64,000 nucleotides of DNA from Spartobacteria bacterium (GTDB taxonomy: Bacteria > Verrucomicrobiota > Verrucomicrobiia > Chthoniobacterales > DASVRZ01), in contig JAYVOE010000025.1 of assembly GCA_043758065.1 (NCBI GenBank), positions 6,158 through 70,157 on the forward strand, in the 5' to 3' direction. How positions within the stretch are numbered: the first letter of the stretch is position 1; the number at the start of each line of letters is the position of its first letter. Below the pieces are notes generated by a model. That model was given only the letters and a program-made list of their open reading frames with translations. It had not been told where the DNA came from and made no database searches. Shown one piece after another: positions 1 to 64,000 of this stretch. Both the position numbers and the translations under genes were made by a program.

Positions 1-839
1 AAACGCGCCGCGTGCTTTCCCGAAACGATTCCTTCGCCACCAGCTTCCACGCCCGTCATGCGAACTTCTTCATCGCCGAGAAATGGATAGAACAACCCGA
101 TCGCATTGCTGCCGCCGCCAACGCACGCGAGCAATAGGTCTGGAAGTCGATTCTCTTTTTCTAAAATCTGCCGCCGCGCTTCGTCGCCAATCACGCGATG
201 GAAATCGCGCACCATCATCGGATACGGATGCGACCCGTAAGCCGTTCCTAATATGTAATGCGTCGAGCGGACATTCGTCACCCAATCGCGCATCGCCTCA
301 TTCACCGCTTCCTTCAGCGTCGCCTGACCCGCCGTCACCGGCACGACCGTCGCACCGAGAAAACGCATCCGCGAAACATTCAGCGACTGACGCACCATGT
401 CCGTCGCGCCCATATAAATCACGCATTCACAGCCAAATCGCGCCGCTACCGTCGCCGTCGCCACGCCGTGCTGACCCGCTCCTGTTTCCGCAATGATGCG
501 TTTTTTGCCCATGCGATTCGCTAGCAAAATCTGGCCGATCGCGTTGTTAATTTTGTGCGCGCCGGTGTGCAGTAAATCTTCCCGCTTCAGATAAATCTTC
601 GCACCGCCCAGATGCTGCGTGAGCCGTTCGGCATGATACAGCGGCGTCGGGCGTCCGCAAAAATTGTGGAGCAAATCAGCTAGTTCCGCCTGAAACTCCG
701 GATCGACGCGAGCGCGATGATACTCCGCTGTTAAATCATTCAGCGCCGTCATCAGCGTCTCGGGGACAAACATTCCGCCGTATTCTCCGAAATGCCCAAA
801 CTCATCTGGCAACGTATCAAGTTGGGTCGCGGTGCTCAT
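1..839 (-). CDS. trpB: tryptophan synthase beta chain (partial; 3' end lies beyond the window edge)
   Basis: The minus-strand frame is open from the window edge to the ATG at 837-839; it is absent from the ORF track because it has no stop in the window. My translation is [30 protein letters not shown]...[15 protein letters not shown]...[12 protein letters not shown], which carries TrpB hallmarks including the PLP-lysine context. Confidence 0.9.
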
Positions 840-918
840 GGCGAAACTTTAACCGTGAATCTGGGTCGTTCCACACGAATGTTTGCAGCGCTCCAGCGTC
901 CGCGATAGAGAACAGGGA

Positions 919-1896
919 ATGAGTTTGCTGACCGCCGATTACGATTTCGAATTGCCCGACGATTTGATCGCGCGTTATCCGACCCCGGAACGCGATGGCA
1001 GTCGCATGTTGGTGGTTCATCGGAGTTCGGGCGAAATCACCCACGCGCAATTCCGCGATCTGCCGCAGTTTCTAACATCCGATGACCTGACGGTTTTGAA
1101 CAATGCGCGCGTGATTCCGGCGCGTGTTTTTTCCGATGACGGCCGCATCGAATTGTTAGTGCTCGATCCGCGACCCGACGGACATTGGCAATGCATGGTC
1201 AAGCCCGGGCGCAAGATGCGGCCCGGCCATTCCGTCACCATCGGCGGCTGCGTCGGTGACGTGCTCTCGATGTTAGAAGATGGCACGCGCGTAATCTATT
1301 TTCCGATCCAGCCGGACCTCGAAAAAGTCGGGACACTTCCGCTTCCACCCTATTTTGGACGCGAAGCGGAACCATCGGACTTGGAGCGATATCAGACCGT
1401 CTATGCGACTGCACCGGGAGCGGTTGCCGCGCCGACTGCAGGGCTGCATTTCACACCAGAAATGTTAGCAGAGTTGCCGCACTGTTTCGTGACGCTCCAT
1501 GTCGGTGCGGGAACTTTTCGCGGCGTGCATAATGACGACCTAACAGACCACATCATGCACTCTGAAAAATTCTGGCTGTCGCCCGAAGTTGCGTCCCAAA
1601 TCAATGCGGCGAAATCGGTTTTTGCCGTTGGCACTACGACCGTGCGCGTTTTGGAAAGCTGCGCGATGGAAGGAAAACTCCAGCCGGGTGAGGGCGAGAC
1701 GCAAATTTTCATTCACCCGCCATTTGAGTTTCAGGTGATTGATAAATTGTTAACCAACTTCCATCTGCCGCGCTCCACGTTGCTGATGTTAGTCTCCGCC
1801 TTCGCTGGGCGTGAATTGATATTAGAAGCCTACGCTCGCGCCATCGAAGCCAGATACCGCTTCTACTCCTATGGCGACTGCATGTTGCTGCTTTGA
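919..1896 (+). CDS. queA: S-adenosylmethionine:tRNA ribosyltransferase-isomerase
   Basis: ORF 883-1896. The conserved QueA N-terminus MSLLTADYDFELPDDLIARYP starts at ATG 919. The protein also contains TAGLHFT and GTTTVRVLES motifs. Confidence 0.9.
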   Translation: MSLLTADYDFELPDDLIARYPTPERDGSRMLVVHRSSGEITHAQFRDLPQFLTSDDLTVLNNARVIPARVFSDDGRIELLVLDPRPDGHWQCMVKPGRKMRPGHSVTIGGCVGDVLSMLEDGTRVIYFPIQPDLEKVGTLPLPPYFGREAEPSDLERYQTVYATAPGAVAAPTAGLHFTPEMLAELPHCFVTLHVGAGTFRGVHNDDLTDHIMHSEKFWLSPEVASQINAAKSVFAVGTTTVRVLESCAMEGKLQPGEGETQIFIHPPFEFQVIDKLLTNFHLPRSTLLMLVSAFAGRELILEAYARAIEARYRFYSYGDCMLLL

Positions 1897-2256
1897 TCTC
1901 CACTGGTATCGCGCCTTCCCTTATACACTCCCAGTTCCCTCCTTTCATTCGACCGTTAGGTGCTGCGCTCGCGGCTTACCCAGACCATGCGCCCTCCATT
2001 TGGCAGGGGATGGCCTACATCCGGCGAGGTTGCATCCGCTGCCTGGAAGCGGCCTTCGGCTTCCGCAGAAATCTCCCCTTTCTGCTCCGAAGCAGATGCG
2101 ACACTCCTCCCAGGCAGACGCGGGAGGATCGGGAGCAGAGCGCCTCCTTTCGCGAGAAGACCCGGCACCGCTGGGAGGCAGTGCCGGGTCTGGTCGTATG
2201 CAGACCGTGGTCTGCCGCTTTGTATCTGCAAAGCGTTGTTCGAGAGCTGTTTAGGA
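1897..2256. ncRNA. candidate structured non-coding RNA, class unknown
   Basis: This is a 360-nt GC-rich spacer between the convergent queA and the 160-aa gene, and it has no credible ORF. It holds several strong hairpins: 2159-2168/2181-2190 (10 bp perfect), 2105-2111/2122-2128, 2039-2068 and 2081-2096. The strand is undetermined. Confidence 0.3.
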
Positions 2257-2739
2257 CTATTTTGGAGCCGCCGGTGTCGCAGCCGAGGAGTCGCCCCCGC
2301 CGCGGCTGAGAAAGCGTAGGAGACCAGCGTCCAAGCCAGCGTCGAGGCCGTCTTCCTTGCCATTTTCTTTGAGGGTGCGGCGCAGATACAAGCCGGTGGC
2401 GAAGCGGTCGCTATCCACCAGCAACTTGGTGCTTTCCAGCTTGTCGGCCACCACGGCGAGGCGTTCGATGCGGACGGCGAGTTGCTCCGCCATCGTGTTG
2501 TCGTTTTCGAGCAGGACGGGGTTGTATTTGCCGGGCAGTAGATCGCTGTTGAGCGTGGCTGTCTTCTGAATGTTCGCGATAAATTCCTCGCCACCATCGG
2601 GCAGCTTGACCACGCGCGCCTTGTCTTTGGCCGAGAGCACGGAAAAGGTCTTTGTTAGTTCTTCGAGCGCATCAAGAGCCGCATCGAAGCTGGTGATCTC
2701 GTCAGCGGTATAGACCTTGTCGATTTTGTTTTGATTCAT
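2257..2739 (-). CDS. hypothetical protein (160 aa)
   Basis: ORF-track protein MNQNKIDKVYTADEITSFDAALDALEEL..., with plausible composition and a TAG stop. I recognise no family. Confidence 0.6.
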   Translation of the reverse strand: MNQNKIDKVYTADEITSFDAALDALEELTKTFSVLSAKDKARVVKLPDGGEEFIANIQKTATLNSDLLPGKYNPVLLENDNTMAEQLAVRIERLAVVADKLESTKLLVDSDRFATGLYLRRTLKENGKEDGLDAGLDAGLLRFLSRGGGDSSAATPAAPK

Positions 2740-2921
2740 GGAATGTGAGAAGCAGGAGCGTTTATGGTTGTGTTGGTGAATGACAAATTGGATGAATTCG
2801 CCGAAAAAGAACTACGGATCGCACCCACAAAGTGCCAGCTAAATATGGAGAAAAAACACACTCCTTCGAGCCTACTTAAGGACCCCGCGCGGAGCGTGGA
2901 GCTTCGGCTCGTTAGAGTGCA

Positions 2922-2950
2922 TCCCAATAAGAACAGGTTGCAGCAACCTG
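2922..2950 (-). terminator. possible intrinsic terminator after trmL
   Basis: On the minus strand CAGGTTG-CTG-CAACCTG (2934-2950) is followed by TTCTTATT. The loop is very tight. Confidence 0.35.
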
Positions 2951-2954
2951 CCAA

Positions 2955-3407
2955 CTATCCTGTTTGAATCTGGCGCAGAGATTCGTAGAGGACGATTCCG
3001 ACGCTGGTCGCGAGGTTCAGACTGCGCGCCTCCGGTTGCATGGGAATCGTCAGGCAATTTTCTGAGTGGAGTTCCAACAGACTCTCCGGCAGGCCTTTGG
3101 TTTCGCGTCCGAAGACGAGGTAGTCGCCTTTTTGGAAATGCGCCTGATGATAGATGCGCTGCGTTTTGGTGGTTAGGAAATACCAGTTAGCTTCACTGTT
3201 AGCAGCGGACTGGCAAGCGGGTAGATCGTCCCAGATGTGGAGATCGACATGGTGCCAGTAATCCATTCCAGCGCGTTTGAGTTGCTTGTCGTCGATGGTA
3301 AATCCGAGCGGACGAATGAGATGCAAGGTGGCTCCGGCGGCGAGACAGAGTCGCGCTATATTTCCCGTGTTAGGCGGAATCTCGGGCGAGACAAGGACGA
3401 CGTTCAT
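2955..3407 (-). CDS. trmL: tRNA (cytidine/uridine-2'-O-)-methyltransferase, SpoU/TrmL type
   Basis: A 150-aa SpoU-family protein. It has MNVVLVSPEIPPNTGNIARLC at the N-terminus and the C-terminal knot region LNLATSVGIVLYE. Confidence 0.85.
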   Translation of the reverse strand: MNVVLVSPEIPPNTGNIARLCLAAGATLHLIRPLGFTIDDKQLKRAGMDYWHHVDLHIWDDLPACQSAANSEANWYFLTTKTQRIYHQAHFQKGDYLVFGRETKGLPESLLELHSENCLTIPMQPEARSLNLATSVGIVLYESLRQIQTG

Positions 3408-3418
3408 CTGAATAGGAT

Positions 3419-3436
3419 GGAACTCGAATGAAAAAT
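3419..3436 (+). repeat. interspersed motif copy GGAACTCGAATGAAAAAT
   Basis: Read directly. Intergenic, between trmL and the RRM-gene terminator. Confidence 0.8.
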
Positions 3437-3443
3437 CGAAAAC

Positions 3444-3475: not shown

Positions 3476-3484
3476 GGTTGTTAG

Positions 3485-3513: not shown

Positions 3514-3515
3514 TG

Positions 3516-4220
3516 TTAGGACTCGCTGCGTTCGGCAGTCTTGGCGCCGCTGACGGTCAGCTTGCGGCCCATGAATTCCTTGTCGTGAAGTTCGACCACG
3601 GCGCGTTTGGCTTCGTCGATCGTTTCCATGGTGACGAAGGCGAAACCTTTCGATTTCTGCGTGTAGTTATTGCTGACCACTTCGGCGTTGCGCACTTTTC
3701 CCACTCCGTTAAAGAGATCGAAGAGATCGCTTTCCCCGGCGTCGAACGAGAGGTTGCCCACGTAGAGTTTCGACGAGGTGACTTCGACGATCTCGATGGA
3801 ACGTGGAGCGCGTTCTTCGCGTGGAGCGCGCTCCGGCGGATTCGACTGCGACTCCGTTGACGAATTTTCGTCCGACGATTCACGGTCAGGACGCGTCTCT
3901 CTGCGGCGATAACTATCCGATGGACGTCCGCTTTCGGAACGTTCGCGGCGCTCGTAGGCTTGCTCGGTCGGGTGAACCGAACGAGGTGCCGACGCTGGAG
4001 CGGCGGGTTTTTTCCCGGTGAAAAGCGCCACGATCTTTTGCCAAAGAGTCAGCGGCTTTGCGGCGCGGGTTTCACGATTTCCGTAGTTGGAACGTTCTGG
4101 ACGTCCATCCCGGCGGGGACCGTTGTTATTGCGGCGCGGGCCGCGGTTGCCTCCGCGACGACCGCCATTGCGATCTTCACGATTATTTTGCGAACTGTTT
4201 TCATTCATAGCTGTGTTCAT
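3516..4220 (-). CDS. RNA-binding protein with a C-terminal RRM domain and a long R/G/E/S/N-rich N-terminal region
   Basis: RNP2/RNP1 motifs are present (KLYVGNLSF ... KGFAFVTM). They follow ~150 aa of low-complexity RGG/RRE-type sequence. The start is ambiguous (ATG at 4250, 4220 or 4208). Confidence 0.75.
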   Translation of the reverse strand: MNTAMNENSSQNNREDRNGGRRGGNRGPRRNNNGPRRDGRPERSNYGNRETRAAKPLTLWQKIVALFTGKKPAAPASAPRSVHPTEQAYERRERSESGRPSDSYRRRETRPDRESSDENSSTESQSNPPERAPREERAPRSIEIVEVTSSKLYVGNLSFDAGESDLFDLFNGVGKVRNAEVVSNNYTQKSKGFAFVTMETIDEAKRAVVELHDKEFMGRKLTVSGAKTAERSES

Positions 4221-4461
4221 ATAGGTGTGTGAATATGACAAAGCGCACACTGGATGCTGACTCCGCGGGAGTGCGTCGGGAGCCGAATGCTCGCGTGCGA
4301 CAAGGCGGAGTCTTTGTCAAAGAACCGGCGTCCACCGTGTGGCCATCTATCGCGCCGGAAATTTTCCTGCCCAGTGAGAATGGCACGCGTCGGTGCCGGA
4401 AGGCCGAGTATGTAACACACACGACGCCCCATCGCAAGCGAGTGATACCGATGGAACTCCC

Positions 4462-5340
4462 ATGAAAAAAAACTGGGACGACGTCTTCGTCATCGCCGGG
4501 CCGACTGCAAGCGGAAAATCCACGTTGGCCGTCGACCTGGCGGAACGTTGGAACGCGGAAATCATCAGTGCCGACGCCTACCAAATCTATCGCGGACTGG
4601 CCATCCTCACAGCGCAACCTAACTCCGCTGAAAAATCCCGCGTGCGGCATCACCTCGTCGACGTGCTCGACCCAATGGCAGAATTCAGCGCGGCGGATTT
4701 TGCACGTTTGGCGCAGACTGCGTTGGAGGATATTCGTTCGCGAAACAAATCCGCCCTAGTCGTCGGCGGTGCGGGATTTTATCTGGAAGCGCTCTTCGAC
4801 GGCCTGCCGGAAACACCACCGCCCGATGAATCGATTCGCACTCGACTGAGAAATTTGTCGCTGCCGGAAATGATCGAAGAGCTGCGTGAGTTCGATCCAA
4901 CTGCATTGGAAATCGTCGATCTAAAAAACCCACGCCGAGTCCAGCGCGCGTTGGAAATCGTTAGCATAACCGGAAAGCCGTTCGCCTCATTTCAACGCGA
5001 GCCGGATCATTCCGTGCGCGGTCTGGTGCTCGATGTATCGCGCGAAATTTTGCACGACCGTATCGAACAACGCATCGATGTGATGTTGCAAAACGGAGCC
5101 ATCGACGAAGCCCGCACGCTCGGCCCGCGCAGCGCCACCTGCGGAAAATCCATCGGAGTTGCAGAGATATCTGCGTTTCTCGCGGGCGAGATTTCATTCG
5201 ATGAATGCCGCGAGCGAATCGTCATCGCGACGCGGCAATACGCCAAACGCCAGCGCACCTGGTTTCGCAATCGCGCGCGATGGGATTTCGTCGCGCCCGA
5301 AGCCGCGCTAGATTTCGCTCTCACTCGACTGAAAATTTAG
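4462..5340 (+). CDS. miaA: tRNA dimethylallyltransferase
   Basis: MKKNWDDVFVIAGPTASGKS (P-loop) begins at ATG 4462. The track ORF 4393-5340 has an implausible 23-aa extension. Confidence 0.9.
   Translation: MKKNWDDVFVIAGPTASGKSTLAVDLAERWNAEIISADAYQIYRGLAILTAQPNSAEKSRVRHHLVDVLDPMAEFSAADFARLAQTALEDIRSRNKSALVVGGAGFYLEALFDGLPETPPPDESIRTRLRNLSLPEMIEELREFDPTALEIVDLKNPRRVQRALEIVSITGKPFASFQREPDHSVRGLVLDVSREILHDRIEQRIDVMLQNGAIDEARTLGPRSATCGKSIGVAEISAFLAGEISFDECRERIVIATRQYAKRQRTWFRNRARWDFVAPEAALDFALTRLKI
4619..4636 (+). repeat. interspersed motif copy CTAACTCCGCTGAAAAAT (inside miaA, encodes NSAEK)
   Basis: Read directly. Confidence 0.8.
5321..5338 (+). repeat. interspersed motif copy TCACTCGACTGAAAATTT (last codons of miaA)
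   Basis: Read directly. Confidence 0.8.
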
Positions 5341-19284: not shown

Positions 19285-19302
19285 TTTTCAGGCGAGTTCC
19301 AC
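19285..19302 (-). repeat. interspersed motif copy (GTGGAACTCGCCTGAAAA on the minus strand; its TGA is the MFS stop)
   Basis: Read directly. Confidence 0.8.
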
Positions 19303-20517: not shown

Positions 20518-20577
20518 GGAGCGGAAGAGATACTCCGAAATTCAGCGAACGCCAAGCACTGGAAATACGCGCGGAAA

Positions 20578-20595
20578 TTTTCAGTCGAGTTCCAT
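20578..20595 (-). repeat. interspersed motif copy (ATGGAACTCGACTGAAAA on the minus strand; its TGA is the U32 stop)
   Basis: Read directly. Confidence 0.8.
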
Positions 20596-31149: not shown

Positions 31150-31851
31150 GTGATTTCCACTCCTCGCTTTCTGGCCTGTGTTTTTCTCGGGCTTATGGCC
31201 TGGGGAAGCGGCGTCGGCGCAGAGTCCAATGAAACTCCGATGGCTTTTGCGAAGTTTGACGATTGGTGGACGCAATACGGCAACGTCGCCGCCGCGGAAC
31301 GCCCGGGCCTGGTCGAAAAAGGGATCGCGCTCGCCAAAAACCGCCGCGATGCCATGGTCGAGTTGATCGAAGAAAACCCGGCGCATGCCATCGAAAAAGC
31401 GTTTGCCGAGGAATACCACAATGCGTTGCCTGCTGTAGTCGCGCCGCTCGTGGAAAAACACGTGCGCGGCCTGGCGAAACTGACGGTCACCAAGGGAAAA
31501 CACGGTGTCGCCGAGCGTAACGTGACCATGGAAAAAGAGAGCTGGAAGGCGTTTTTCTACGGAGTCAGATTGGACTTGAACTCGCGTGGAGAAATTCCCA
31601 TTCACGGCGTCGTGCTCGACGGACGCGTCGCGGTCGACGGCAGTCCGCTGGAGCGTTTTCCAAAACGGGAAAGTCTGCTCAACGTCCTGCGTCAGGGCGA
31701 AGGCAAAAAATCGTGCCCGATCTGCGGTGAGCCCGGGGTGATTCCAGCGGCCGTCGGCGATGTGCTGCTGTGGTTCGACACGGAGGAGCACCTCGTCGTT
31801 TGCGAGAAAGCGTTGGTCGAAAAAGAAGCGTCGCCCGAGGACGCAGAATAG
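31150..31851 (+). CDS. hypothetical secreted protein (233 aa)
   Basis: GTG start with a signal-peptide-like N-terminus (ISTPRFLACVFLGLMAWGSGVGA). I recognise no family. Confidence 0.5.
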   Translation: MISTPRFLACVFLGLMAWGSGVGAESNETPMAFAKFDDWWTQYGNVAAAERPGLVEKGIALAKNRRDAMVELIEENPAHAIEKAFAEEYHNALPAVVAPLVEKHVRGLAKLTVTKGKHGVAERNVTMEKESWKAFFYGVRLDLNSRGEIPIHGVVLDGRVAVDGSPLERFPKRESLLNVLRQGEGKKSCPICGEPGVIPAAVGDVLLWFDTEEHLVVCEKALVEKEASPEDAE

Positions 31852-33894: not shown

Positions 33895-34401
33895 ATGCAA
33901 ACTGTTGGCATCGGATATGACGTGCACCGGCTGGTCGAGGGTCGGCGGTTGATCCTCGGAGGCGTGGAAATTCCCTACGCGCTCGGGCTCGACGGCCACT
34001 CCGATGCAGACGTGCTCTGCCACGCCATCGCCGACGCCATCTTGGGAGCCGCTGGAATGCGCGACATTGGACATCATTTTCCTAACACCGATGAATCGAT
34101 CCGCGGGATCAGCAGCCTGGAAATTCTCAGTCGAGTTCAAGTGTTATTAACGACGCAACACCGACGCATTATTAACATCGACGCCACATTGATCGCCGAG
34201 GCGCCAAAGATCGCGCCGCATCTCGACGCCATGCAAGCCGCCATCTCGCGCGTGTTGCATTTGCCAAAAGAACGCATCGGAATCAAGGCGACTACCAACG
34301 AAATGCTCGGCTTCCTCGGGCGCAAAGAAGGCATCGCTGCGATGGCCGTTGCCAGCGTGGAAACCGTGCCCGAAAAACCCGAGCCCGTGGCGATCGCCTA
34401 A
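33895..34401 (+). CDS. ispF: 2-C-methyl-D-erythritol 2,4-cyclodiphosphate synthase
   Basis: It has GIGYDVHRL, HSDADVLCHA and ATTNE motifs. Confidence 0.9.
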   Translation: MQTVGIGYDVHRLVEGRRLILGGVEIPYALGLDGHSDADVLCHAIADAILGAAGMRDIGHHFPNTDESIRGISSLEILSRVQVLLTTQHRRIINIDATLIAEAPKIAPHLDAMQAAISRVLHLPKERIGIKATTNEMLGFLGRKEGIAAMAVASVETVPEKPEPVAIA

Positions 34402-39437: not shown

Positions 39438-39611
39438 AACTGGGCCGCGACGATCTTGAGCTGTAAACTTTCTCAGCGGAGTTGGATTCGACTGTGGCGC
39501 AGAACGACAGTGGACTTACCTTTCGACTAAATCGCGAGATGTCGGCCGTCAGCGCGAGCCTGATCGGTGCGAAAGAAGAAGCCGGTTAAGACCCCGGGCA
39601 AAAAGCTTATA

Positions 39612-40112
39612 TTAGGTGCAGCGGTGAAATCTGTTTCCGCATGGTGGACATTTTACTCGGATATTCCCATAACCTTCCGGAATTCGAAGCATTTGGGCGC
39701 AACAAGGACATCTAATAATGACCTTCGTGCTTTCCTTGTATCTGACGTATGCGGAAAGGCAGGAAGAAAGCCAGCGGTCATGCTGGATTAGACACCAAAC
39801 AAAACTAGTCAAGTATACGAATAGAATCAAAATGGTTAAAAGCAGCGTTACCGGTACGGCAACAAAGGCGAAAATCATTAGGCTGATGGAGAAAATCACG
39901 AGGATGGCCTTGAGCCAGACAGGACGATCTCGGAAACGTGCGGCAGCATTTATCTGCTTCGGTGATTGAGTGTTTTTAACTTTCTTGCGAAACTCTTTTC
40001 GGAAGTGAGCCTTTCCCAAGCTGAAGACGGCTTTCCCCATTTCTATTTCCTCGCTAGCCGAAAGCTTGGGTGGCCTCCAATTCAATGTTACATATTGAAA
40101 TTGATAGATCAT
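39612..40112 (-). CDS. orphan membrane protein with a C-terminal zinc ribbon (low-GC islet)
   Basis: It has two central TM helices and a C-terminal CPCC-x18-CPPC ribbon (IRCPCCAQMLRIPEGYGNIRVKCPPCGNRF). The local GC is clearly lower than in the flanks. Confidence 0.45.
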   Translation of the reverse strand: MIYQFQYVTLNWRPPKLSASEEIEMGKAVFSLGKAHFRKEFRKKVKNTQSPKQINAAARFRDRPVWLKAILVIFSISLMIFAFVAVPVTLLLTILILFVYLTSFVWCLIQHDRWLSSCLSAYVRYKESTKVIIRCPCCAQMLRIPEGYGNIRVKCPPCGNRFHRCT

Positions 40113-40201
40113 ATGCCGTTAGAGGTCAGCTATCAGGAGGCTAGTTCACCTCTAACCAGACTTGCTGCTCTGATAAGATTTCAGCAGTAGACTCCAGTTT
40201 C

Positions 40202-40528
40202 TCATCGATGTGCAGGGCTGAAATGTTCAAGTGATTGCTCCTTTGTATTTTTTGCGGAGATGACAAAAGAACAGATCGAAACAGATAGAGCTATACCTGA
40301 TAAAAAAAGCGCAATCCAAGATACTAGCGAACGACTCCAAAAATCTCTTATCCATTGGCGAGTCTCCAATTCTAAAGCGTAAATGGAGGCATAATCTGGG
40401 CTCGAGAATCTGATGTTCGATTCAAAATGTAATTGCGTGTCAGGCCTGTCGAGAAAGCTATGGTCGCGCGTAGGGAAAAATATCTTTCTTAACCAACGAT
40501 CAAGCCGTGGTCGCGTCCGAAGTTTCAT
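40202..40528 (-). CDS. orphan small protein with one TM helix (low-GC islet)
   Basis: 108 aa with the TM segment LVSWIALFLSGIALSVSICSFVI. I recognise no family. Confidence 0.35.
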   Translation of the reverse strand: MKLRTRPRLDRWLRKIFFPTRDHSFLDRPDTQLHFESNIRFSSPDYASIYALELETRQWIRDFWSRSLVSWIALFLSGIALSVSICSFVISAKNTKEQSLEHFSPAHR

Positions 40529-40565
40529 AAAATTCTCAGATTCGGATGAATCAAACTAGCCAACA

Positions 40566-48618: not shown

Positions 48619-48692
48619 GCGGGTATAGCTTAGTGGTAAAGTTCTAGTCTTCCAAACTAGCCATGCGGGTTCGATTCCCGCTACCCGCTCCA
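48619..48692 (+). tRNA. tRNA-Gly (anticodon UCC), CCA encoded
   Basis: I folded the cloverleaf by hand. The acceptor is GCGGGTA/TACCCGC, the anticodon stem is CTAGT/ACTAG with loop CTTCCAA, and the T-arm is GCGGG-TTCGATT-CCCGC, followed by T-CCA. 74 nt. Confidence 0.9.
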
Positions 48693-56959: not shown

Positions 56960-56980
56960 GAAAACTGAGCGGAGTTAGAC
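56960..56980 (-). repeat. interspersed motif copy (GTCTAACTCCGCTCAGTTTTC on the minus strand; its TAA is the brnA stop)
   Basis: Read directly. Confidence 0.8.
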
Positions 56981-57238
56981 TTCTTTCTCGAGCCGCTCGC
57001 TGAGCCATTGCTTGATCATGCTCTGGTAATTTAAATATCGAGAACGAGCCAACCGCTTAATGCGCGCCAGCATTCGCGGATCAAATCGGAGAGTAATCGT
57101 CGTCGAATCCCGCATCTCCGTCTTCTGGAGCGATGCCTGGAGAAGATGTTGCTCCAGGCGGGCGCCCGCCCAAAAAGCGGCTTCCTCCTCCTCGGAGCTA
57201 AATGACGGAACTTCAGACCACGCGGTAATACTTTTCAT
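56975..57238 (-). CDS. brnA: BrnA-type antitoxin
   Basis: MKSITAWSEVPSFSSEEEEAAFW... from ATG 57238. It has a C-terminal RHH-like region, and its start overlaps the brnT stop (ATGA). Confidence 0.75.
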   Translation of the reverse strand: MKSITAWSEVPSFSSEEEEAAFWAGARLEQHLLQASLQKTEMRDSTTITLRFDPRMLARIKRLARSRYLNYQSMIKQWLSERLEKEV

Positions 57239-57516
57239 AGGGCAAATTCGGCGTTTTTGCGGTCGTAATAGCTCACTTCCTCTCCGACCATTTCCCGCGA
57301 ACAGATTACGCGATAACGTTTCCCATCGGTCCAGAAGACACTGAAAATGGGGCGTCCGTCGACAGATTTGCCGAGGCAAAAATAGCGTGCATCGTTCGAC
57401 GGGCCGACGGAATCCGGCAGAAACCGCAGGCTAAAAGGATCTTCAAAAGACTCCTCGATCTCTCGCGGGGTGATTTTTTTGAGATTAAAAGGAGCGTCGA
57501 GCCAGTCGAAATCCAT
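57235..57516 (-). CDS. brnT: BrnT-type toxin (DUF497)
   Basis: MDFDWLDAPFNLKKITPREIEESFEDPF...RVICSREM is the characteristic DUF497/BrnT pattern. Confidence 0.8.
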   Translation of the reverse strand: MDFDWLDAPFNLKKITPREIEESFEDPFSLRFLPDSVGPSNDARYFCLGKSVDGRPIFSVFWTDGKRYRVICSREMVGEEVSYYDRKNAEFAL

Positions 57517-57534
57517 GGGAGTTAAAGCGATATG

Positions 57535-57915
57535 TTAGGGTGCCGGTTGGATGAGCTCGATCTCGTAACCTTCCGGCGCGTCGATGAAAGCGATTTTACT
57601 GCCACTCGGCGAGGAATGTGGTCCGTCGCTCAGCGGATATCCCTTGGCGGCGGCTTCCTTCGCAAATGCTTCCAAATCAGCGACTTCGAAGGCAAGATGA
57701 GTCAGGTCGGGGCCGACCAGCACCGGGCCACTTTCGTCGAATTTGCAAATTTCAATCTCTTCGCTGCTGCCCGGAGCTTTGAAGAAAACTAATTGCGAAC
57801 CCCGACCGGAGGTATGACGCCGGGTTTCCTCCAAGCCGAGCACTTCCTTGTAAAAATGGACGGTTTTTTCCAAATCCTGAACGCGATAGCGGGTGTGAAG
57901 CAGGCGAGTCAGCAT
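57535..57915 (-). CDS. VOC-family (glyoxalase I-like) protein
   Basis: MLTRLLHTRYRVQDLEKTVHFYKEVLGL... is 126 aa from ATG 57915. The remainder of the 481-aa track ORF is antisense to xylB. Confidence 0.8.
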   Translation of the reverse strand: MLTRLLHTRYRVQDLEKTVHFYKEVLGLEETRRHTSGRGSQLVFFKAPGSSEEIEICKFDESGPVLVGPDLTHLAFEVADLEAFAKEAAAKGYPLSDGPHSSPSGSKIAFIDAPEGYEIELIQPAP

Positions 57916-59526: not shown

Positions 59527-59555
59527 CCGAGTCGACTGGAACTCGAATCTGTTTT

Positions 59556-61208
59556 TTACTGGATGATGCCGGGCTCGGTGTGGAGGCTGAAGTTGTTTTT
59601 CTCCACAAGTTCCTTTGCCTCGGCGTTTTCTGGGTCGAGTTTCAGCGCATTCTGCAAATCTGCGGCGGCGTCTTTGTTTTCCTTTGCGGCGATATGCGCC
59701 TTGGCCCGACCGATCAGGGAACCCATCCGCGTCGGCTCGGCAATGAGGGCTTTGCTGTATTCCAGGATGGCGTCGGCCGCTCGGTTGAGCGCGAGTAAAG
59801 CGTCCCCGCGCGCTTCGAGAAGATCCGGCCAGTCGGGTTGCAAGACGATGGCGAGTTCGTAGCTCTCCAGGGCGCCGGCAACGTCGCCGGCTTTCATTTT
59901 TACGCGGCCTTCCTTGTAGAAATCGCTGGCACCGGTGTTGATGACGAGTGGTGTCGGCTTGGGCGTGCTGGCGGGGGCGTTGAGCGTTTGCCGATACAGG
60001 TCGAGGTTCGCCCGGGACGGTGCGAAATCGCCTCCGATGCGGTCGTTGAGTTGTAAAATGTGGATGCTTTCCTCAGCTTCGAGGGCTTTTTCGCGTTTCT
60101 CGTCCAGGACACGCTGAGTTCGCAATTGCTTATCGACGGTGTGATTTCGGTAGATGATCCAGCCGATGACGGCTGGCATGGCTACGGCGCAGATCAAGGT
60201 CAGGATTTTCAGGATTAGCTTTTGCGTCGGCTTTTCCTGGCCCGGCATTTTTCTCGGACGGAGGCGTTTGCGCTCGACGGCGACTTGATGCTCGGTTTTT
60301 TCCCATTCCTGGAGGAGCGGGTTAAATTCGACAAAAATATCCAGCTCTTGCAGCATCAGCGACAACACTTCGGGACGCTCGGTCGGCTCTGTCGAGAGGG
60401 CGATGAGGACTTGTTCGCGCCATTTTTGGGGAACTTCCGACAGCAGAGCGTCGGCAGCGGTTTTATCCACATTTCCTTCGGAGTCGAGTGGCGGATTTTT
60501 GCCGGTGAATAGCTGGAATGCGACGGCGGCAAAGGCGTAAATGTCGTCCGCATGAGAAGGCGATCCGCCGCGCAATCTCTCCGGGCTCTGGCAAGCGATT
60601 TTCCATGGGAGTTCGAGTGAAATGGGCGCGTCATCCGTCTTCGGCGGCGTTGGCGGGTGAAAGCCGAAGTCGGTGATTTTCGCAGTCGCGCGCCGGACGG
60701 GAACGAGGATGTTGTAGGCGTTCAGATTGCCGTGAACGATGAGGCATTTGTCGTGCGCGGCGGCTACGGCGGAGCCAACGGTCCGGAGAATGTCCTCGAT
60801 TTGCTGAAACGGCAGCTTGCGGCCGACTTGCAGGGTGAGTGCCGCCAGAGTCGGGCCATTTTCGTAGTTGCTCGAAAGCGCCAGCCAGGAGCCTTCGTGG
60901 AAATACTCGATCGTGATCACAATATCCGGATGATTTAGAATGCGAAGACGGCGCAAAAAATCCCGCCAAATAGCACGTTCTTCCTCGGTGCCTTCCTCGC
61001 CTTGAGAGCGGAAAAGCTTCAGCACGACATCGCGCCGGAAGCGCGGATCCTCGACGAGCCAGGAGGTGCTGCAACGGCCCCGGCCCAGTTCTGATTGGAG
61101 TATGAATCGATTGAAAATTCGCGCGCCGGGTTCGAGGCGAGGTTCTTTTTTCACCAAGCGCGCGCTGCCCGGTTTGGGCGGCTCAGAGATTTTCGGGACG
61201 AACTCCAT
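59556..61208 (-). CDS. Ser/Thr protein kinase with a TM helix and C-terminal TPR repeats
   Basis: It has the kinase subdomains VLKLF, HGNLNAYNILV and ITDFG, then a TM helix (ILTLICAVAMPAVIGWIIY), then TPR repeats. Confidence 0.8.
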   Translation of the reverse strand: MEFVPKISEPPKPGSARLVKKEPRLEPGARIFNRFILQSELGRGRCSTSWLVEDPRFRRDVVLKLFRSQGEEGTEEERAIWRDFLRRLRILNHPDIVITIEYFHEGSWLALSSNYENGPTLAALTLQVGRKLPFQQIEDILRTVGSAVAAAHDKCLIVHGNLNAYNILVPVRRATAKITDFGFHPPTPPKTDDAPISLELPWKIACQSPERLRGGSPSHADDIYAFAAVAFQLFTGKNPPLDSEGNVDKTAADALLSEVPQKWREQVLIALSTEPTERPEVLSLMLQELDIFVEFNPLLQEWEKTEHQVAVERKRLRPRKMPGQEKPTQKLILKILTLICAVAMPAVIGWIIYRNHTVDKQLRTQRVLDEKREKALEAEESIHILQLNDRIGGDFAPSRANLDLYRQTLNAPASTPKPTPLVINTGASDFYKEGRVKMKAGDVAGALESYELAIVLQPDWPDLLEARGDALLALNRAADAILEYSKALIAEPTRMGSLIGRAKAHIAAKENKDAAADLQNALKLDPENAEAKELVEKNNFSLHTEPGIIQ

Positions 61209-61308
61209 AATTTTCCAGCCACTCCCTAAAGACTGGGGCTGGAGATGTCAACTGCCGCACCTTGCAATTTTCTTCCCCGCCATTACCCTGCAACTATTAG
61301 CAAAACTG

Positions 61309-62400
61309 ATGTCAGCCATATTTTCTGAGACGTCTGTGATCGACAAAGTGATCGCTGGTGAACGCATCTCCGGTGCGGAAGCCATGGAGCTTTATCGATT
61401 GCCGCTGCCGGAACTCGGCTGGCTGGCCGATCAGCGCCGCCAGCAGAAAAAAGCGGATTCCTACGGCGGGCGAGGTAATGAGATCGTCACTTACATCATC
61501 GATCGCAACATCAATTACACCAACGTCTGCAATGTTTACTGTAAGTTTTGCGCATTTTACCGAACGGAAAAGGATGCCGACCATTACGTTCTAACTCACG
61601 CGGAAATTGATCAGAAAATCGAGGAACTGAGCGCGATTGGCGGCGTGCAGATTCTGATGCAAGGCGGGCATCATCCGAAGCTCGGGATCGATCATTACCT
61701 CGATCTGCTGCATCACATCCGGGAGAAATTTCCGCAGATTAACATTCACGCGTTCAGCCCGCCGGAGTTCAACCATTTTTCATCCGTGTTCGATATGACT
61801 CTGAGTGAGGTGATTACGAAGTTTAAGGAAGCTGGGCTGGGGTCGATCCCGGGCGGTGGCGGCGAGATTCTCGTGGACCGAGTGCGGAATCGGATTGCCC
61901 CATTGAAATGCAACTCCGATCAGTGGCTCGAAGTGATGGCGATTGCCCATGAACTCGGCTTGAACACGAGTGCGACGATGATGTTTGGCCACGTGGAAAC
62001 GGTGGAGGATCGGATCGAGCATTTGCAGAGGTTGCGCGATCAACAGGACGCGACCGGTGGGTTTACGGCGTTCATTTGCTGGACGTTTCAGCCGGAAAAC
62101 ACGGTGTTGAAAGCTGAGCCGGTCGGAAGCGCGGAATATCTGCGGATGCAGGCGCTGTCGCGGATTTACCTCGATAATTTCGATAACGTGCAGAGCTCGT
62201 GGGTCACGCAAGGTCCGAAGATCGGGCAGATCGCTTTGAAATACGGCGCGAACGATTTCGGCTCCGTGATGATGGAGGAAAACGTCGTCAGCAGCGCAGG
62301 GACGTCGTTTCGCCTGGCGGTGGATGACATCCGGCGATTGGTCACGGAAGCGGGCTACGAAGCGCGTCCACGGGACAACTGGTATCGACTGCTGGACTAA
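61309..62400 (+). CDS. radical-SAM futalosine-pathway enzyme (MqnC/MqnE family, MqnC-like)
   Basis: MSAIFSETSVIDKV... from ATG 61309. It has the CNVYCKFCAF cluster motif, and GANDFGSVMMEENVV near the C-terminus. Confidence 0.8.
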   Translation: MSAIFSETSVIDKVIAGERISGAEAMELYRLPLPELGWLADQRRQQKKADSYGGRGNEIVTYIIDRNINYTNVCNVYCKFCAFYRTEKDADHYVLTHAEIDQKIEELSAIGGVQILMQGGHHPKLGIDHYLDLLHHIREKFPQINIHAFSPPEFNHFSSVFDMTLSEVITKFKEAGLGSIPGGGGEILVDRVRNRIAPLKCNSDQWLEVMAIAHELGLNTSATMMFGHVETVEDRIEHLQRLRDQQDATGGFTAFICWTFQPENTVLKAEPVGSAEYLRMQALSRIYLDNFDNVQSSWVTQGPKIGQIALKYGANDFGSVMMEENVVSSAGTSFRLAVDDIRRLVTEAGYEARPRDNWYRLLD

Positions 62401-62461
62401 AGAAATCTCGGCGGCAAAGTTTTCATCCGGGTTGCATGGAATTCAGAAATGACAGTGCGCT

Positions 62462-62481
62462 GAAACTCCGCTCAAATTTTT
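62462..62481 (+). repeat. interspersed motif copy GAAACTCCGCTCAAATTTTT (intergenic, between the mqnC-like gene and bamA)
   Basis: Read directly. Confidence 0.8.
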
Positions 62482-62570
62482 CTTTTGGGGAAACGCTTGA
62501 CCTTTCTCTTACTTTTCCTCCATCTATAGCCGGTTTTCTGGCCCCGCCCAGATTAGGCACTTTATTATTT

Positions 62571-64000
62571 ATGACACCCATCCAAGCCATTTCGAGAAAC
62601 GTCGTAGCTGCATTTCTCTTCTTTTTCACCGCGCTGCCGCTCGTTTCGCAAACGGCGAACAATGCTCCGGTGGTCCAATCGATCGAGGTGCAATTCGCGG
62701 GTCCAGCCCCGATCAGTAAGGAGCGCATCCTGGCCAACATCCGCACCACGGTGGGTAAGCCTTACTCCGAGCCCGTCGTCGAGGAGGACATTAAGAGCCT
62801 GTATCGCACGGGCGCCTTGTCGAACGTTCGTATGTTTGGCGAACCTTCTGGCAGCAGCATTAAAGTTTTCATCGTAGTTCAAGGGAAATCAACGGTCAGC
62901 GAAGTCGTCATTGATGGCGGCGAAATCATCAAGCCGGCCCGTATTCGCAAGGAAATTACCGCCAAGCCCGGCGCGATTTTGAACGAGGACACTCTCGAAG
63001 CCGATCGCCAGAAGATCATCGAGCTCTACCAAAAGCGCGGCTACACCGATATCGGCATTCAATATAAGTCGGAGGTCGACAAGAACGGCAAAGCCCGCGT
63101 GACGTTTGTCATTTCCGAAGGGGCAAAAACGGAAGTGGACGGCATCAATTTCATTGGAAACACGGCGTTCAAGAAAAAGGCCATCATCAAAGTGATGAAG
63201 ACCCGCCCGAAGAACTTGCTGGCGTTTTTTAACAAATCCGGCCAGCTCAGCGCGACGCAGCTCGACGAGGATTTGCAGAAGATCAAACTGCTTTACCAGA
63301 ATGCTGGTTATGCCGATATGAAGATCATCGACTCGCAGGTCAGCCGCATCAGCGCGAAGAAAGTGGATCTCAATATCTCGATCTTCGAAGGGCCAAAATA
63401 CACGGTCCGCTCAGTCTCGATCGAGGGCAACCAACTGGCGACAGCGGAGCAAATTCGCGGGATTTTGACGATGAAAGAAGGTTCCGTGTTTGGACCTGAT
63501 GCGAGTCAGAAGGATATCAAGGCGATTGAAGATTCCTATGGCCGCCTCGGCTACGCAGACATGAAGGTGGACTCGATCACCACGCCCGCCGGAGCGGGTT
63601 CGCTCAACCTCCAATACAAAATCGAGGAAGGCGTCCAGAGTTACCTGGAGCGCATTAACATTTCCGGCAACACCCGCACGAAGGATAAAGTCCTTCGCCG
63701 CGAACTCGTTCTTGCGCCCGGCGATGTTTATGACACTGTCCGCGTGGACGTGAGCAAAAAGCGCCTCGAAGGGCTCGACTATTTCGAGAAAGTGGAGACT
63801 TACCCGACCGATACGCTGGTTCCCGGGCGCAAGGATTTAAACATCAACGTGGATGAGAAACGCACGGGATCGCTGAATTTTGGTTTCGGTTTCAGTTCTA
63901 TCGACTCGATTCTTGGCTTCGCAGAAGTGACTCAGGGCAACTTCGATTTGATGGGCTATCCAAACTTCACCGGCGCCGGACAGAAATTCCGCCTGAAGCT
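62571..64000 (+). CDS. bamA: outer-membrane protein assembly factor BamA (partial; continues beyond the window)
   Basis: My translation from ATG 62571 is MTPIQAISRNVVAAFLFFFTALPLVSQT..., followed by POTRA-like repeats (V..I.V.GN....E.I, Y...GY). The frame is open to the window end and is not in the ORF track. Confidence 0.85.
   Translation, partial: MTPIQAISRNVVAAFLFFFTALPLVSQTANNAPVVQSIEVQFAGPAPISKERILANIRTTVGKPYSEPVVEEDIKSLYRTGALSNVRMFGEPSGSSIKVFIVVQGKSTVSEVVIDGGEIIKPARIRKEITAKPGAILNEDTLEADRQKIIELYQKRGYTDIGIQYKSEVDKNGKARVTFVISEGAKTEVDGINFIGNTAFKKKAIIKVMKTRPKNLLAFFNKSGQLSATQLDEDLQKIKLLYQNAGYADMKIIDSQVSRISAKKVDLNISIFEGPKYTVRSVSIEGNQLATAEQIRGILTMKEGSVFGPDASQKDIKAIEDSYGRLGYADMKVDSITTPAGAGSLNLQYKIEEGVQSYLERINISGNTRTKDKVLRRELVLAPGDVYDTVRVDVSKKRLEGLDYFEKVETYPTDTLVPGRKDLNINVDEKRTGSLNFGFGFSSIDSILGFAEVTQGNFDLMGYPNFTGAGQKFRLK

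Follow-up and report, generated by a model that had tools for sequence, protein, structure and literature searches.

A densely repeated 29-bp motif in an uncultured soil Chthoniobacterales bacterium and its likeness to DNA uptake sequences

We have found a 29-bp motif that recurs 142 times in a 64-kb stretch of DNA (the window) from an uncultured soil Chthoniobacterales bacterium (Verrucomicrobia), a density of 2.2 copies per kb. No description of this motif was found in the literature.

Structure and abundance of the motif

Copies were called with an iterated position weight matrix (PWM) at a threshold of at least 14 bits. The resulting consensus, wGAtTnsrCTSnAACTCSrmTSAawwttt, spans 29 bp with sharp edges and amounts to 23.7 bits. 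A preliminary description had recognized a motif of 16-20 nt, which is real but was wrongly bounded, corresponding to the 3′ two-thirds of the full element. The 12 nt added upstream hold the invariant letters A (-10), T (-3) and G/C (-11). Two related half-sites with 11-bp phasing, together with an A/T tract, make up the motif, which has no RNA structure.

Against the 142 copies observed in 64 kb, Markov nulls predict approximately 2. The window contains 52 matches to the regular expression AACTC[CG][ACG][ACT]T[CG]A, with 1.3, 1.8 and 3.6 expected under Markov models of order 1, 3 and 5, respectively, and 44 matches to the stricter 21-nt sequence pattern ANNNNNNTSNAACTCSNNTSA, versus 0.05 in dinucleotide-preserving shuffles. 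Recurrence far above chance had been proposed from exact sub-words, and proves to be stronger than was thought, with 142 PWM copies rather than a few dozen. CTCGACTGA and ACTCCGCTCA each occur nine times, exactly where they had been located (0.43 and 0.20 expected under the order-3 Markov model). ACTCCGATG does recur, although 14 times rather than 12 (1.23 expected); sites at 33998 and 43400 had been overlooked, and one listed at 31244 lies at 31234. ACTCGAAT, put at 12 or more, was counted 13 times (2.73 expected). Copies other than those named in the next section are listed below by coordinates, strand and PWM score.

132..160 (+), 16.7 bits
1011..1039 (-), 20.2 bits
1366..1394 (-), 16.7 bits
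3057..3085 (-), 25.4 bits
3409..3437 (+), 30.4 bits
3485..3513 (-), 29.6 bits
3838..3866 (+), 23.5 bits
4609..4637 (+), 21.0 bits
4827..4855 (+), 26.5 bits
4887..4915 (+), 20.8 bits
5144..5172 (-), 29.9 bits
5552..5580 (-), 15.5 bits
5843..5871 (+), 22.1 bits
6311..6339 (+), 20.7 bits
6821..6849 (+), 24.4 bits
7021..7049 (+), 14.9 bits
7419..7447 (-), 29.9 bits
7929..7957 (-), 20.2 bits
8448..8476 (-), 25.8 bits
9253..9281 (+), 19.1 bits
9478..9506 (-), 30.9 bits
10308..10336 (+), 17.2 bits
10806..10834 (+), 29.5 bits
11399..11427 (+), 24.7 bits
11450..11478 (+), 24.6 bits
12102..12130 (-), 31.3 bits
12583..12611 (-), 17.0 bits
12709..12737 (+), 29.0 bits
13389..13417 (+), 19.4 bits
14310..14338 (+), 28.9 bits
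14463..14491 (+), 26.4 bits
15179..15207 (+), 27.8 bits
15233..15261 (-), 24.2 bits
15665..15693 (+), 30.5 bits
15872..15900 (-), 22.5 bits
16184..16212 (-), 27.8 bits
16465..16493 (-), 28.1 bits
17247..17275 (-), 15.5 bits
18614..18642 (+), 18.6 bits
19091..19119 (-), 21.4 bits
19236..19264 (-), 15.5 bits
20370..20398 (+), 28.6 bits
21270..21298 (-), 25.2 bits
21419..21447 (+), 25.4 bits
21721..21749 (+), 25.2 bits
21864..21892 (+), 23.0 bits
22170..22198 (-), 25.0 bits
22571..22599 (+), 18.8 bits
22745..22773 (+), 17.3 bits
22957..22985 (-), 16.0 bits
23860..23888 (+), 28.2 bits
24399..24427 (-), 24.5 bits
25040..25068 (-), 21.0 bits
25650..25678 (-), 24.7 bits
26630..26658 (+), 21.4 bits
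28072..28100 (-), 20.8 bits
28167..28195 (-), 15.5 bits
28321..28349 (+), 22.3 bits
29732..29760 (-), 28.0 bits
29985..30013 (+), 30.7 bits
30122..30150 (-), 32.0 bits
31221..31249 (+), 26.9 bits
31567..31595 (+), 22.5 bits
31845..31873 (+), 25.3 bits
31894..31922 (+), 28.4 bits
32160..32188 (+), 18.3 bits
33686..33714 (-), 29.4 bits
33805..33833 (-), 26.0 bits
34121..34149 (-), 25.7 bits
35219..35247 (+), 16.3 bits
35447..35475 (-), 30.9 bits
35674..35702 (+), 25.5 bits
35934..35962 (+), 22.7 bits
36103..36131 (-), 14.5 bits
36270..36298 (+), 28.7 bits
36923..36951 (-), 26.9 bits
37670..37698 (+), 25.4 bits
37746..37774 (-), 18.2 bits
38063..38091 (+), 25.9 bits
39467..39495 (-), 26.6 bits
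40683..40711 (-), 21.1 bits
41093..41121 (+), 20.3 bits
41926..41954 (+), 22.0 bits
42717..42745 (-), 18.6 bits
43446..43474 (-), 26.3 bits
45101..45129 (+), 23.2 bits
45140..45168 (+), 30.8 bits
45202..45230 (+), 29.0 bits
45999..46027 (+), 24.5 bits
46086..46114 (-), 22.1 bits
46207..46235 (+), 23.1 bits
46267..46295 (-), 19.9 bits
46860..46888 (-), 16.5 bits
47570..47598 (-), 25.9 bits
47879..47907 (-), 30.6 bits
48138..48166 (+), 14.8 bits
48351..48379 (+), 25.6 bits
49460..49488 (+), 26.9 bits
49884..49912 (+), 22.8 bits
50337..50365 (+), 30.8 bits
50633..50661 (-), 15.4 bits
51222..51250 (+), 18.3 bits
51794..51822 (+), 22.0 bits
52463..52491 (-), 25.4 bits
52870..52898 (-), 23.2 bits
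53421..53449 (-), 25.0 bits
53895..53923 (-), 26.1 bits
54263..54291 (-), 18.4 bits
54994..55022 (-), 28.4 bits
55464..55492 (+), 15.7 bits
55751..55779 (-), 20.8 bits
56168..56196 (-), 24.6 bits
56919..56947 (-), 30.3 bits
56960..56988 (-), 22.8 bits
58107..58135 (-), 27.5 bits
58473..58501 (+), 22.9 bits
59199..59227 (-), 21.8 bits
59528..59556 (+), 28.1 bits
59625..59653 (-), 21.8 bits
60597..60625 (-), 29.4 bits
61086..61114 (-), 19.2 bits
61581..61609 (+), 16.6 bits
61774..61802 (-), 20.8 bits
61900..61928 (+), 19.0 bits
62417..62445 (-), 25.3 bits
62452..62480 (+), 30.2 bits
62863..62891 (-), 23.8 bits
63491..63519 (-), 16.5 bits

Placement relative to genes

The motif occurs in all six reading frames and on both strands, also within genes. 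Coding DNA holds 113 copies versus approximately 11 in synonymous-codon shuffles; this enrichment of more than 10-fold, together with the use of six frames and both strands, argues against a purely protein-level or purely promoter origin, as had been suspected. The peptides earlier read from copies (LTRLKN, NSAEK, ELHSEN and MELD-stop) are all correct. Some copies coincide with, overlap or adjoin the starts and stops of genes, as follows.

4443..4471 (+), contains the called miaA start codon (ATG, 4462), 27.1 bits
5310..5338 (+), miaA 3′ end, 31.7 bits
6359..6387 (+), contains the start codon (ATG, 6378) of a called gene, 32.0 bits
13161..13189 (+), adjoins the called gltX start (13192), 31.2 bits
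19282..19310 (-), TGA is the MFS gene stop codon (19288-19290), 28.5 bits
20575..20603 (-), TGA is the U32 peptidase gene stop codon (20581-20583), 26.7 bits
31084..31112 (-), overlaps PHP-domain gene start (31093), 21.9 bits
33038..33066 (-), adjoins mnmA start (33037), 23.7 bits
38593..38621 (-), adjoins plsY start (38588), 30.7 bits
42538..42566 (-), adjoins efp start (42535), 24.8 bits
43665..43693 (+), overlaps rpsB start (43688), 22.1 bits
44489..44517 (+), ATG (44508) is the tsf start, 17.5 bits
46697..46725 (-), across rhodanese gene stop and sufE-like gene start region, 28.6 bits
57507..57535 (-), ATG (57516) is the called BrnT-like toxin gene start (gene call in L277), 23.3 bits

There is no strand skew in the 64-kb window, with 71 copies on each strand, and the inverted pairs remarked upon previously do not exceed the number expected if copies are oriented at random. 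A low-GC islet (39.55-40.55 kb, GC 42-46%) is indeed free of copies, as first noted; its 1.2-kb gap is not unusual, however, because four other copy-free gaps in the window are longer.

Evolution of the copies and likeness to known repeats

The idea that the motif is a host-genome signature is borne out, as it continues outside the window and in related species. Relatives at approximately 80% nucleotide identity have the same motif density, mostly at orthologous sites, and one species at approximately 74% identity has a weak version; the motif was absent from 78 other Chthoniobacterales loci. Between strains 4% apart, the invariant motif positions show no change. Copies originated by point substitution rather than by insertion. 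They are located in poorly conserved protein segments, where they caused additional amino-acid changes.

A REP-type repeat, to which the motif had also been likened, can be set aside: the motif is neither palindromic nor extragenic, and it was not inserted. The main rival explanation is an array of sites bound in situ by a protein on the chromosome, for which cyanobacterial HIP1 is the likeness. We tentatively favor a DNA uptake sequence (DUS/USS)-like role as the best explanation, because the evolutionary signature matches that of uptake sequences. Published uptake sequences are substitution-driven and lie in poorly conserved residues (PMC2817400), as do the copies described here, and the original comparison with DUS/USS or HIP-type repeats thus gains support, with uptake itself a putative role. 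To date, self-DNA uptake tags are known only in relatives of Neisseria and Haemophilus, and this motif from one Verrucomicrobia lineage resembles them.

Sequence and abundance of the 29-bp motif

We have found that the window is densely populated by copies of a 29-bp motif, a part of which had been recognized in the preliminary description as an AACTC sequence of ~16-20 nt. The recurrent sub-words listed there are present, with small corrections to their positions and counts. ACTCCGATG occurs 14 times rather than 12 (the occurrence placed at 31244 lies at 31234, and those at 33998 and 43400 had been overlooked), and ACTCGAAT recurs 13 times over both strands, in line with the 12 or more described. 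The regular expression proposed for the motif has 52 matches on both strands, compared to 1.3, 1.8 and 3.6 under order-1, order-3 and order-5 Markov models of the window. Alignment of these 52 matches revealed conserved bases far upstream of the proposed pattern, the limits of which had been drawn too narrowly. A position weight matrix (PWM), trained on the window itself, converged upon iteration at ~145 sites of ≥12 bits, versus 0-4 in order-3 Markov sequences. At ≥14 bits, the threshold used here to define a copy, there are 142 copies in 64 kb (2.2/kb) versus ~2 in Markov nulls, and 122 still score ≥18 bits, so that scores are almost all-or-none. A strict pattern, ANNNNNNTSNAACTCSNNTSA, has 44 matches versus 0.05 expected under a dinucleotide-shuffle null.

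Coding sequence alone carries 113 copies, compared to a mean of 10.6 (range 5-16) when synonymous codons were shuffled within genes, keeping protein sequence and codon usage. Codon or amino-acid bias as the cause is ruled out by this shuffle and by the Markov nulls of orders 1, 3 and 5. The window DNA has also been assembled independently in ENA and Logan assemblies. Nor is the motif confined to the window, as it occurs in the 7 kb past the window end and on an unlinked contig of a related organism (L233). The term "genome-wide" is an extrapolation from even density, continuation past the window and this one contig, with ~71 kb of the genome seen.

The motif extends from -12 to +16 relative to the first A of AACTC, has sharp edges and holds 23.7 bits. 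Its consensus is w-G-A-t-T-n-s-r-C-T-S-n-A-A-C-T-C-S-r-m-T-S-A-a-w-w-t-t-t, or AGATTCGACTGCAACTCCGATGAAAATTT as plain sequence. A(-10) is invariant (142/142 copies); conservation reaches at least 95% at T(-3), A(+1), T(+3), C(+4) and T(+8), and 92% at C(+2). Positions -11, -6, -2, +5 and +9 are strictly G or C, and positions -12, -9/-8 and +12/+13 are A or T only. Self-similarity of the profile peaks at an 11-bp shift (r = 0.44, with 0.21 for the next best shift), which implies two related half-sites one helical turn apart. These are G-A-t-T-n-s-r-C-T-S and A-A-C-T-C-S-r-m-T-S, followed by an A/T tract, and each is an imperfect palindrome of the form A-y-T-S-S-r-m-T. The motif as a whole is asymmetric, as its best correlation with its own reverse-complement profile is partial only (0.51). 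Mutual information links only neighboring positions, and ten high-scoring copies fold as RNA no better than shuffles (z-scores near 0) and share no common fold. Because G/C-only and A/T-only degeneracy stands beside invariant bases, and because of the 11-bp repeat, we infer that a protein reads one face of duplex DNA, making base-specific contacts where the motif is invariant and reading DNA shape or the minor groove at the S and W positions.

Distribution among strands, frames and genes

Copies are divided equally between the strands (71 plus and 71 minus) and neighbors are randomly oriented (++, 35; --, 39; +-, 34; -+, 33). The inverted pairs mentioned in the preliminary description do not amount to an enrichment of terminator-like arrangements. 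The mean gap between copies is 449 bp with a coefficient of variation (CV) of 0.73, slightly more even than an exponential (KS p = 0.03), and every 4-kb bin holds 4-14 copies, giving a uniform density. The motif is split 71/71 over this one 64-kb window, in which the cumulative GC skew climbs steadily. As had been observed, copies lie on both strands and in coding as well as non-coding DNA. Twenty of the 142 (14%) are intergenic, compared to ~9% of the sequence, and the 122 intragenic copies (~85%), of which 71 are sense and 51 antisense (p = 0.085), occupy all six frames. Since gene coordinates beyond 3.2-24.5 kb and 52-64 kb are rough calls, the numbers given for frames and for intergenic copies are approximate. 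T-[PR]-[ML]-K is the peptide most often encoded (39 copies).

The window is ordinary housekeeping chromosome (queA, spoU, miaA, hisD, gltX, aroE, mnmA, cysS, gpsA, plsY, efp, rpsB and tsf) that also carries an exopolysaccharide/exosortase cluster. No copy lies inside rpsB, tsf or efp. A low-GC islet at 39.55-40.55 kb is likewise without copies, an absence with a probability of ~0.11 for 1 kb, and four motif-free gaps are longer. An Rfam search of the window found only a tRNA and a DUF3800-VIII RNA, both unrelated to the motif. Separate from the motif, the following features were observed:

2857-2921, minus strand: Rfam DUF3800-VIII RNA, 45.8 bits against a gathering score of 40.2, with spoU on one side and a hypothetical gene on the other
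3516-4208, minus strand: 230-aa protein that ends in an RRM_1 RNA-binding domain of eukaryote type (a match to the NCBIfam "RNA-binding regulator" domain that falls short of the cutoff)
~20529-20561, in the spacer that separates the MFS gene from the U32 peptidase gene: 33-bp indel, missing in L083 and present in the window and L084 (L083 and L084 are loci of another strain); flanked by short GA repeats, it is not a motif copy
39550-40560: islet of 42-46% GC (versus 55.6%) that may be recently acquired DNA, with ORFs at 39612-40112 (minus strand) and 40202-40528 (minus strand) that have no Pfam or NCBIfam match
48619-48689, plus strand: tRNA gene (Rfam, 70.9 bits) with no overlapping motif copy
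56975-57915, minus strand: glyoxalase gene and, after it, a BrnT-like toxin / CopG-like antitoxin pair, inserted between an FGGY kinase gene and the exosortase (EpsH/EpsI) cluster; Logan assembly L279 has another gene at the glyoxalase place

Start codons show a local surplus of copies. In thirteen of ~60 genes, a sense copy either overlaps the start codon or lies 7-29 nt upstream of it, whereas ~2 would be expected (~6-fold), and only three antisense copies fall in the same zone. The starts concerned are at 4462, 6378, 13192, 26671, 31093, 33037, 38588, 42535, 43688, 44508, 46690, 47569 and 57516, and the genes include rpsB, tsf, efp, gltX and miaA. At four or more called genes (4462, 6378, 44508 and 57516) the ATG of the motif is itself the start codon, and at two others (19288 and 20581) its TGA is the stop codon. 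Together with the A/T tract at the motif end, this surplus could suggest a gene-expression element, either a promoter/transcription start or a translation-initiation leader, that is also present or has spread within genes. We regard this as very unlikely. Such an element would leave ~110 copies unexplained, as ~85% of copies are intragenic and, without the start-proximal ones, sense and antisense are nearly balanced (57 versus 51). By inspection, the motif has no convincing likeness to sigma-70, sigma-54, ECF, T7-like or Bacteroidetes-type promoters and no Shine-Dalgarno-like part, and the orthologous genes of motif-free relatives do without it. The surplus can also be explained by fit, in that the ATG at motif positions 7-9 and the AAA codons after it match MKK N-termini, and the TGA at positions 8-10 has twice served as a stop. 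With only 13 of 142 copies start-proximal and sense, and the rest mostly intragenic in both orientations, the distribution is not that of an operator or promoter.

Origin, upkeep and taxonomic range of the copies

Across a stretch with more than 25 copies, the window aligns to the motif-free locus L003 over 10,885 versus 10,926 nt, and lengths so nearly equal mean that the copies are not insertions. High copy number, sharp edges and a length (29 bp) near a multiple of 3 might otherwise have pointed to a miniature mobile element of the MITE, REP or Rickettsia palindromic element (RPE) type, a structured RNA, a peptide repeat or a compositional artefact. A mobile element is contradicted by the unchanged length of motif-free orthologous DNA and by the lack of terminal inverted repeats, target duplications or hairpin-grade palindromy. 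The intragenic location and the use of all six frames contradict mobile element and peptide repeat alike, and an artefact is contradicted by enrichment that persists under Markov-5 and codon-shuffle nulls and by the agreement of the ENA and Logan assemblies. With no insertion, no fold and enrichment over the codon shuffle, this whole group of readings is effectively refuted, and we consider it extremely improbable.

Conservation at orthologous sites in relatives, a check suggested in the preliminary description, was measured as the share of window copies still scoring ≥14 bits at the orthologous position, random positions scoring about -26. It is high in motif-rich relatives and nil in L003 and L006.

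Table. Motif density and conservation of window copies in compared loci (locus; nucleotide identity to window; copies/kb at ≥14 bits; window copies kept; mean ortholog score in bits)
L083/L084, another strain; 96%; 2.35; 93% (L083); 23.3 (L083)
L086; ~80%; 2.2; 68%; 13.5
L087, L088; ~80-81%; 1.65, 2.5; 67-73%; 19.8, 21.1
L004; ~74%; 0.38 (8 copies in 21 kb); 10%; -2.1
L003; ~64-74% (range for L003, L005 and L006); 0; 0%; -16.8
L006; same range; 0; 0%; -20.6
L005; same range; 0; no value; no value

Between strains 4% apart, the five invariant positions are unchanged in all 54 copies compared, against ~11 changes expected (P ~ 1.6e-5, with a mild ascertainment bias as sites were picked in the window). 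The difference between the window and L083/L084 is a uniform 4%, leaving no mosaic contrast to read for recombination. Nucleotide identity to L003 and L006 is 30-60% within the motif versus ~74% overall. Amino-acid identity to motif-free relatives is 51-55% at motif codons versus 79-81% elsewhere, and between two motif-free relatives the same codons are 65.5% identical versus 82.5% elsewhere. Lower identity at the same codons in both comparisons indicates that the motif settles in tolerant segments and forces extra replacements in its own lineage. Taken together, these data show a long, asymmetric pattern in duplex DNA that is created by directional point substitution and kept against mutation, is indifferent to strand, frame and gene orientation, and is costly to proteins.

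One way to account for this upkeep is an array of binding sites that acts in place on the chromosome. Thousands of sites would be bound by a lineage-specific, sequence-specific DNA-binding protein that organises the nucleoid, loads condensin or marks DNA as self, an explanation that we consider possible but somewhat doubtful. As has been argued for HIP1, a cyanobacterial iterated palindrome, selection for chromosome structure or self-identification would both make and keep the sites. Orthologous sites kept over ~20% nucleotide divergence with unchanged invariant bases, the slightly regular spacing, the absence of strand bias, and phased half-sites whose S/W degeneracy resembles a protein footprint on one DNA face all agree with such an array, and HIP1 shows that selection can keep such motifs without uptake (PMC5861425). 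However, the benefit per site would be tiny, yet amino-acid identity is 52% versus 65% at the same codons; because the motif overrides protein sequence in this way, drive is favored over per-site selection. Moreover, no candidate for the protein emerged, a 24-bit site at 2.2/kb is more than any known nucleoid protein requires, and sister species live without the motif.

The closest GTDB genomes are uncultured Chthoniobacterales with GltX ≤90% identical and ~74% nucleotide identity. Among 80 loci of GTDB relatives (~1.2 Mb, in loci of ~20 kb), no motif was found except in L004 and as scattered single matches, and the strict pattern has 0 matches in 78 other loci of Chthoniobacterales. Among the metagenome matches listed, the unlinked 5.9-kb contig L233 is motif-rich (6-8 copies) and encodes a histidine kinase 75% identical to a Chthoniobacterales protein; the other listed matches are mostly due to chance. 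A scan of IMG/VR for phage carriage gave 68 single, chance-level matches and no motif-rich contig. No comparable alternative motif, or "dialect", was found in L003-L007 by seeded PWM refinement, a procedure that recovered the motif in the window; dialect searches by k-mer ranking, flank information and pairwise windows were too insensitive. As a separate observation, the first 14-20 kb of L005 have a surplus of direct near-repeats with GGT/GCC-rich periodic words, unrelated to the motif, which suggests a repetitive protein-coding gene.

In a small neighbor-joining tree of HisD, GltX and AroE with motif codons masked, the motif-rich species are monophyletic, with L003 and L004 as sister on short branches and the placement of L004 not firm. 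L004 (JBBRNR010000005.1, from the Chthoniobacterales MAG La1_metabat2.183) carries a weak version of the motif. Its copies include some at positions orthologous to window copies, others private to L004, and one common to L086 but absent from the window. Private copies and one shared with L086 imply either that the process was active in the L004 lineage or earlier, or that L004 is losing the motif; the lineage may thus be losing or gaining it. The motif is restricted to one Chthoniobacterales subclade of roughly genus level. This gradient, from motif-rich species through L004, where the motif is fading or nascent, to motif-free sisters, makes the responsible gene discoverable by phylogenetic profiling.

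Restriction to one subclade with fading in L004, as if a single gene system had been gained or lost, would also suit a molecular drive that does not involve uptake, such as sequence-specific repair, nicking or gene conversion, or templated conversion from abundant single-stranded DNA or RNA. Its logic would be akin to that of very-short-patch repair, although the site recognized would be long. We consider this explanation improbable. Clustered directional substitutions, visible as motif nucleotide identity of 30-60% against 74% overall, are in its favor. On the other hand, no known repair bias gives a 29-bp pattern, no retron, diversity-generating retroelement (DGR) or nickase gene was seen in the window, and the degenerate S/W positions speak against copying from a single template.

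A possible uptake role and comparison with known systems

It is hypothesized that the motif works as a self-DNA uptake tag of the type of the Neisseria and Haemophilus uptake sequences (DUS/USS). This analogy is our leading proposal, held tentatively, and it is ranked first because the feature combination of the motif is the published uptake-sequence signature; DUS/USS are the sole experimentally explained motif class with this combination (PMC2817400, PMC3458573, PMC3630211). Over-representation, strand symmetry, substitution origin and residue-conservation bias are all found in the window data, and point-mutation origin in poorly conserved residues is the pattern published for USS/DUS (PMC2817400).

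In the uptake-tag proposal, the motif, with its two 11-bp-phased half-sites and A/T tract, would be a lineage-specific, chromosome-wide recognition site on double-stranded DNA. A surface or periplasmic receptor of a competence machine would prefer fragments bearing it, such that conspecific DNA would be imported preferentially and then recombined into the chromosome. This bias, a form of molecular drive, would turn near-matching sites into copies by point substitution where the protein tolerates it, and the same bias would hold copies in place once formed. Biased uptake followed by recombination is reported to suffice for uptake-sequence accumulation (Maughan, Wilson and Redfield, 2010). We infer that a protein reads the duplex motif and that it does so as part of the machinery for DNA uptake, so that the accumulation would stem from biased uptake and not from a function in situ.

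Several points count against an uptake tag. The motif is longer and more degenerate than known DUS or the USS core and twice as dense, has no dialects in sister lineages and no inverted-pair enrichment, and shows a surplus of sense copies at start codons that an uptake tag does not predict. Orthologous-site conservation is equally expected from in-situ function, as argued for HIP1 (PMC5861425). Neither the 64-kb window nor the next 7 kb contains a competence (com), type IV pilus or pilin gene, and the searchable literature yielded no account of natural transformation or biased uptake in Verrucomicrobia. If the motif is not an uptake tag, it may instead be the binding array of a lineage-specific chromosomal protein, or the product of another non-uptake drive, that rewrote ~6% of the genome, coding sequence included. 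We hold this to be the less probable view. Chromosome-wide "formatting" of that kind, at 29 bp, 24 bits and 2.2/kb, would then be without characterized precedent.

Uptake-sequence-type motifs have been established experimentally in only two proteobacterial families, and the motif described here is a very clear example of a genome-wide "self"-type motif in uncultured Chthoniobacterales. Some of the most abundant bacteria in soil belong to this order. An uptake tag, if confirmed, would predict natural transformation and kin discrimination in a dominant soil lineage, and would offer a sequence handle with which to build genetic tools and to follow recombination in metagenomes. Otherwise, the motif points to a chromosome-wide DNA-protein system able to reshape proteins.

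Like DUS/USS, the motif is non-palindromic, reaches a density of at least ~1 copy/kb with the two strands equally occupied, and is found within and outside coding DNA and in several frames (PMC2817400, PMC3458573, PMC3630211). Further common traits are origin by point mutation, location in poorly conserved residues with distorted peptide content (PMC2817400), orthologous sites common to related species, rarity in constrained and perhaps in foreign DNA, and an extended build of core plus A/T tract. DUS of Neisseriaceae are 12 bp long, and USS of Pasteurellaceae have a 9-bp core in an extended motif of ~29-32 bp with phased AT tracts. In contrast to these, the motif belongs to another phylum (Verrucomicrobiota, uncultured), has an unrelated sequence and reaches 2.2/kb. 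Its information is spread over 29 bp in two phased half-sites with systematic G/C-only positions rather than concentrated in a tight core. It occupies an approximately genus-level subclade with no dialects seen in neighbors, whereas DUS/USS are family-wide, and it differs further in lacking inverted-pair enrichment and in its start-codon surplus.

The preliminary description had also drawn comparisons with HIP-type and REP-type repeats. HIP1 (GCGATCGC) resembles the motif in having more than one copy per gene, within and between ORFs, and in being conserved beyond neutral expectation (PMC5861425, PMC4390886); this site conservation has been read as evidence of selection (PMC5861425), and links to chromosome structure and transformation have been proposed (PMC5861425, PMC4390886, bioRxiv 10.1101/2024.09.10.611283). 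The HIP-type comparison therefore holds for hyper-abundance in and between ORFs and for conservation between genomes, but fails on palindromy: HIP1 is an 8-bp perfect palindrome, phylum-wide and associated with orphan methyltransferases, whereas the motif is 29 bp, asymmetric, degenerate and clade-restricted, and is not known to be tied to a methyltransferase. REP/BIME, MITEs and Rickettsia palindromic elements are similarly short interspersed repeats of high copy number. The REP-type comparison is not borne out, however, as such units are palindromic or inserted and mostly extragenic or in-frame, whereas the motif is ~85% intragenic with no insertion and no hairpin. Chi and KOPS (FtsK-orienting) sequences are likewise over-represented oligomers, in which DNA-processing proteins read a signal of "self" or of chromosome architecture, but they are 5-8 bp long and strongly skewed to one replication strand, unlike the 71/71 split seen here. 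Boxes of the OmpR/PhoB type likewise have two similar half-sites one helical turn apart (11-bp periodicity), yet these operators number tens per genome upstream of genes, whereas the motif would number thousands, mostly in genes. The preliminary description had recognized no described element, and our literature search similarly found neither this motif nor an uptake-like motif in Verrucomicrobia. There is a considerable, though lesser, chance that the motif is something without precedent. In its proposed working it is most like DUS/USS, and it belongs neither to the HIP-type palindromes nor to the REP/MITE repeats, Chi/KOPS-type sequences or operators.
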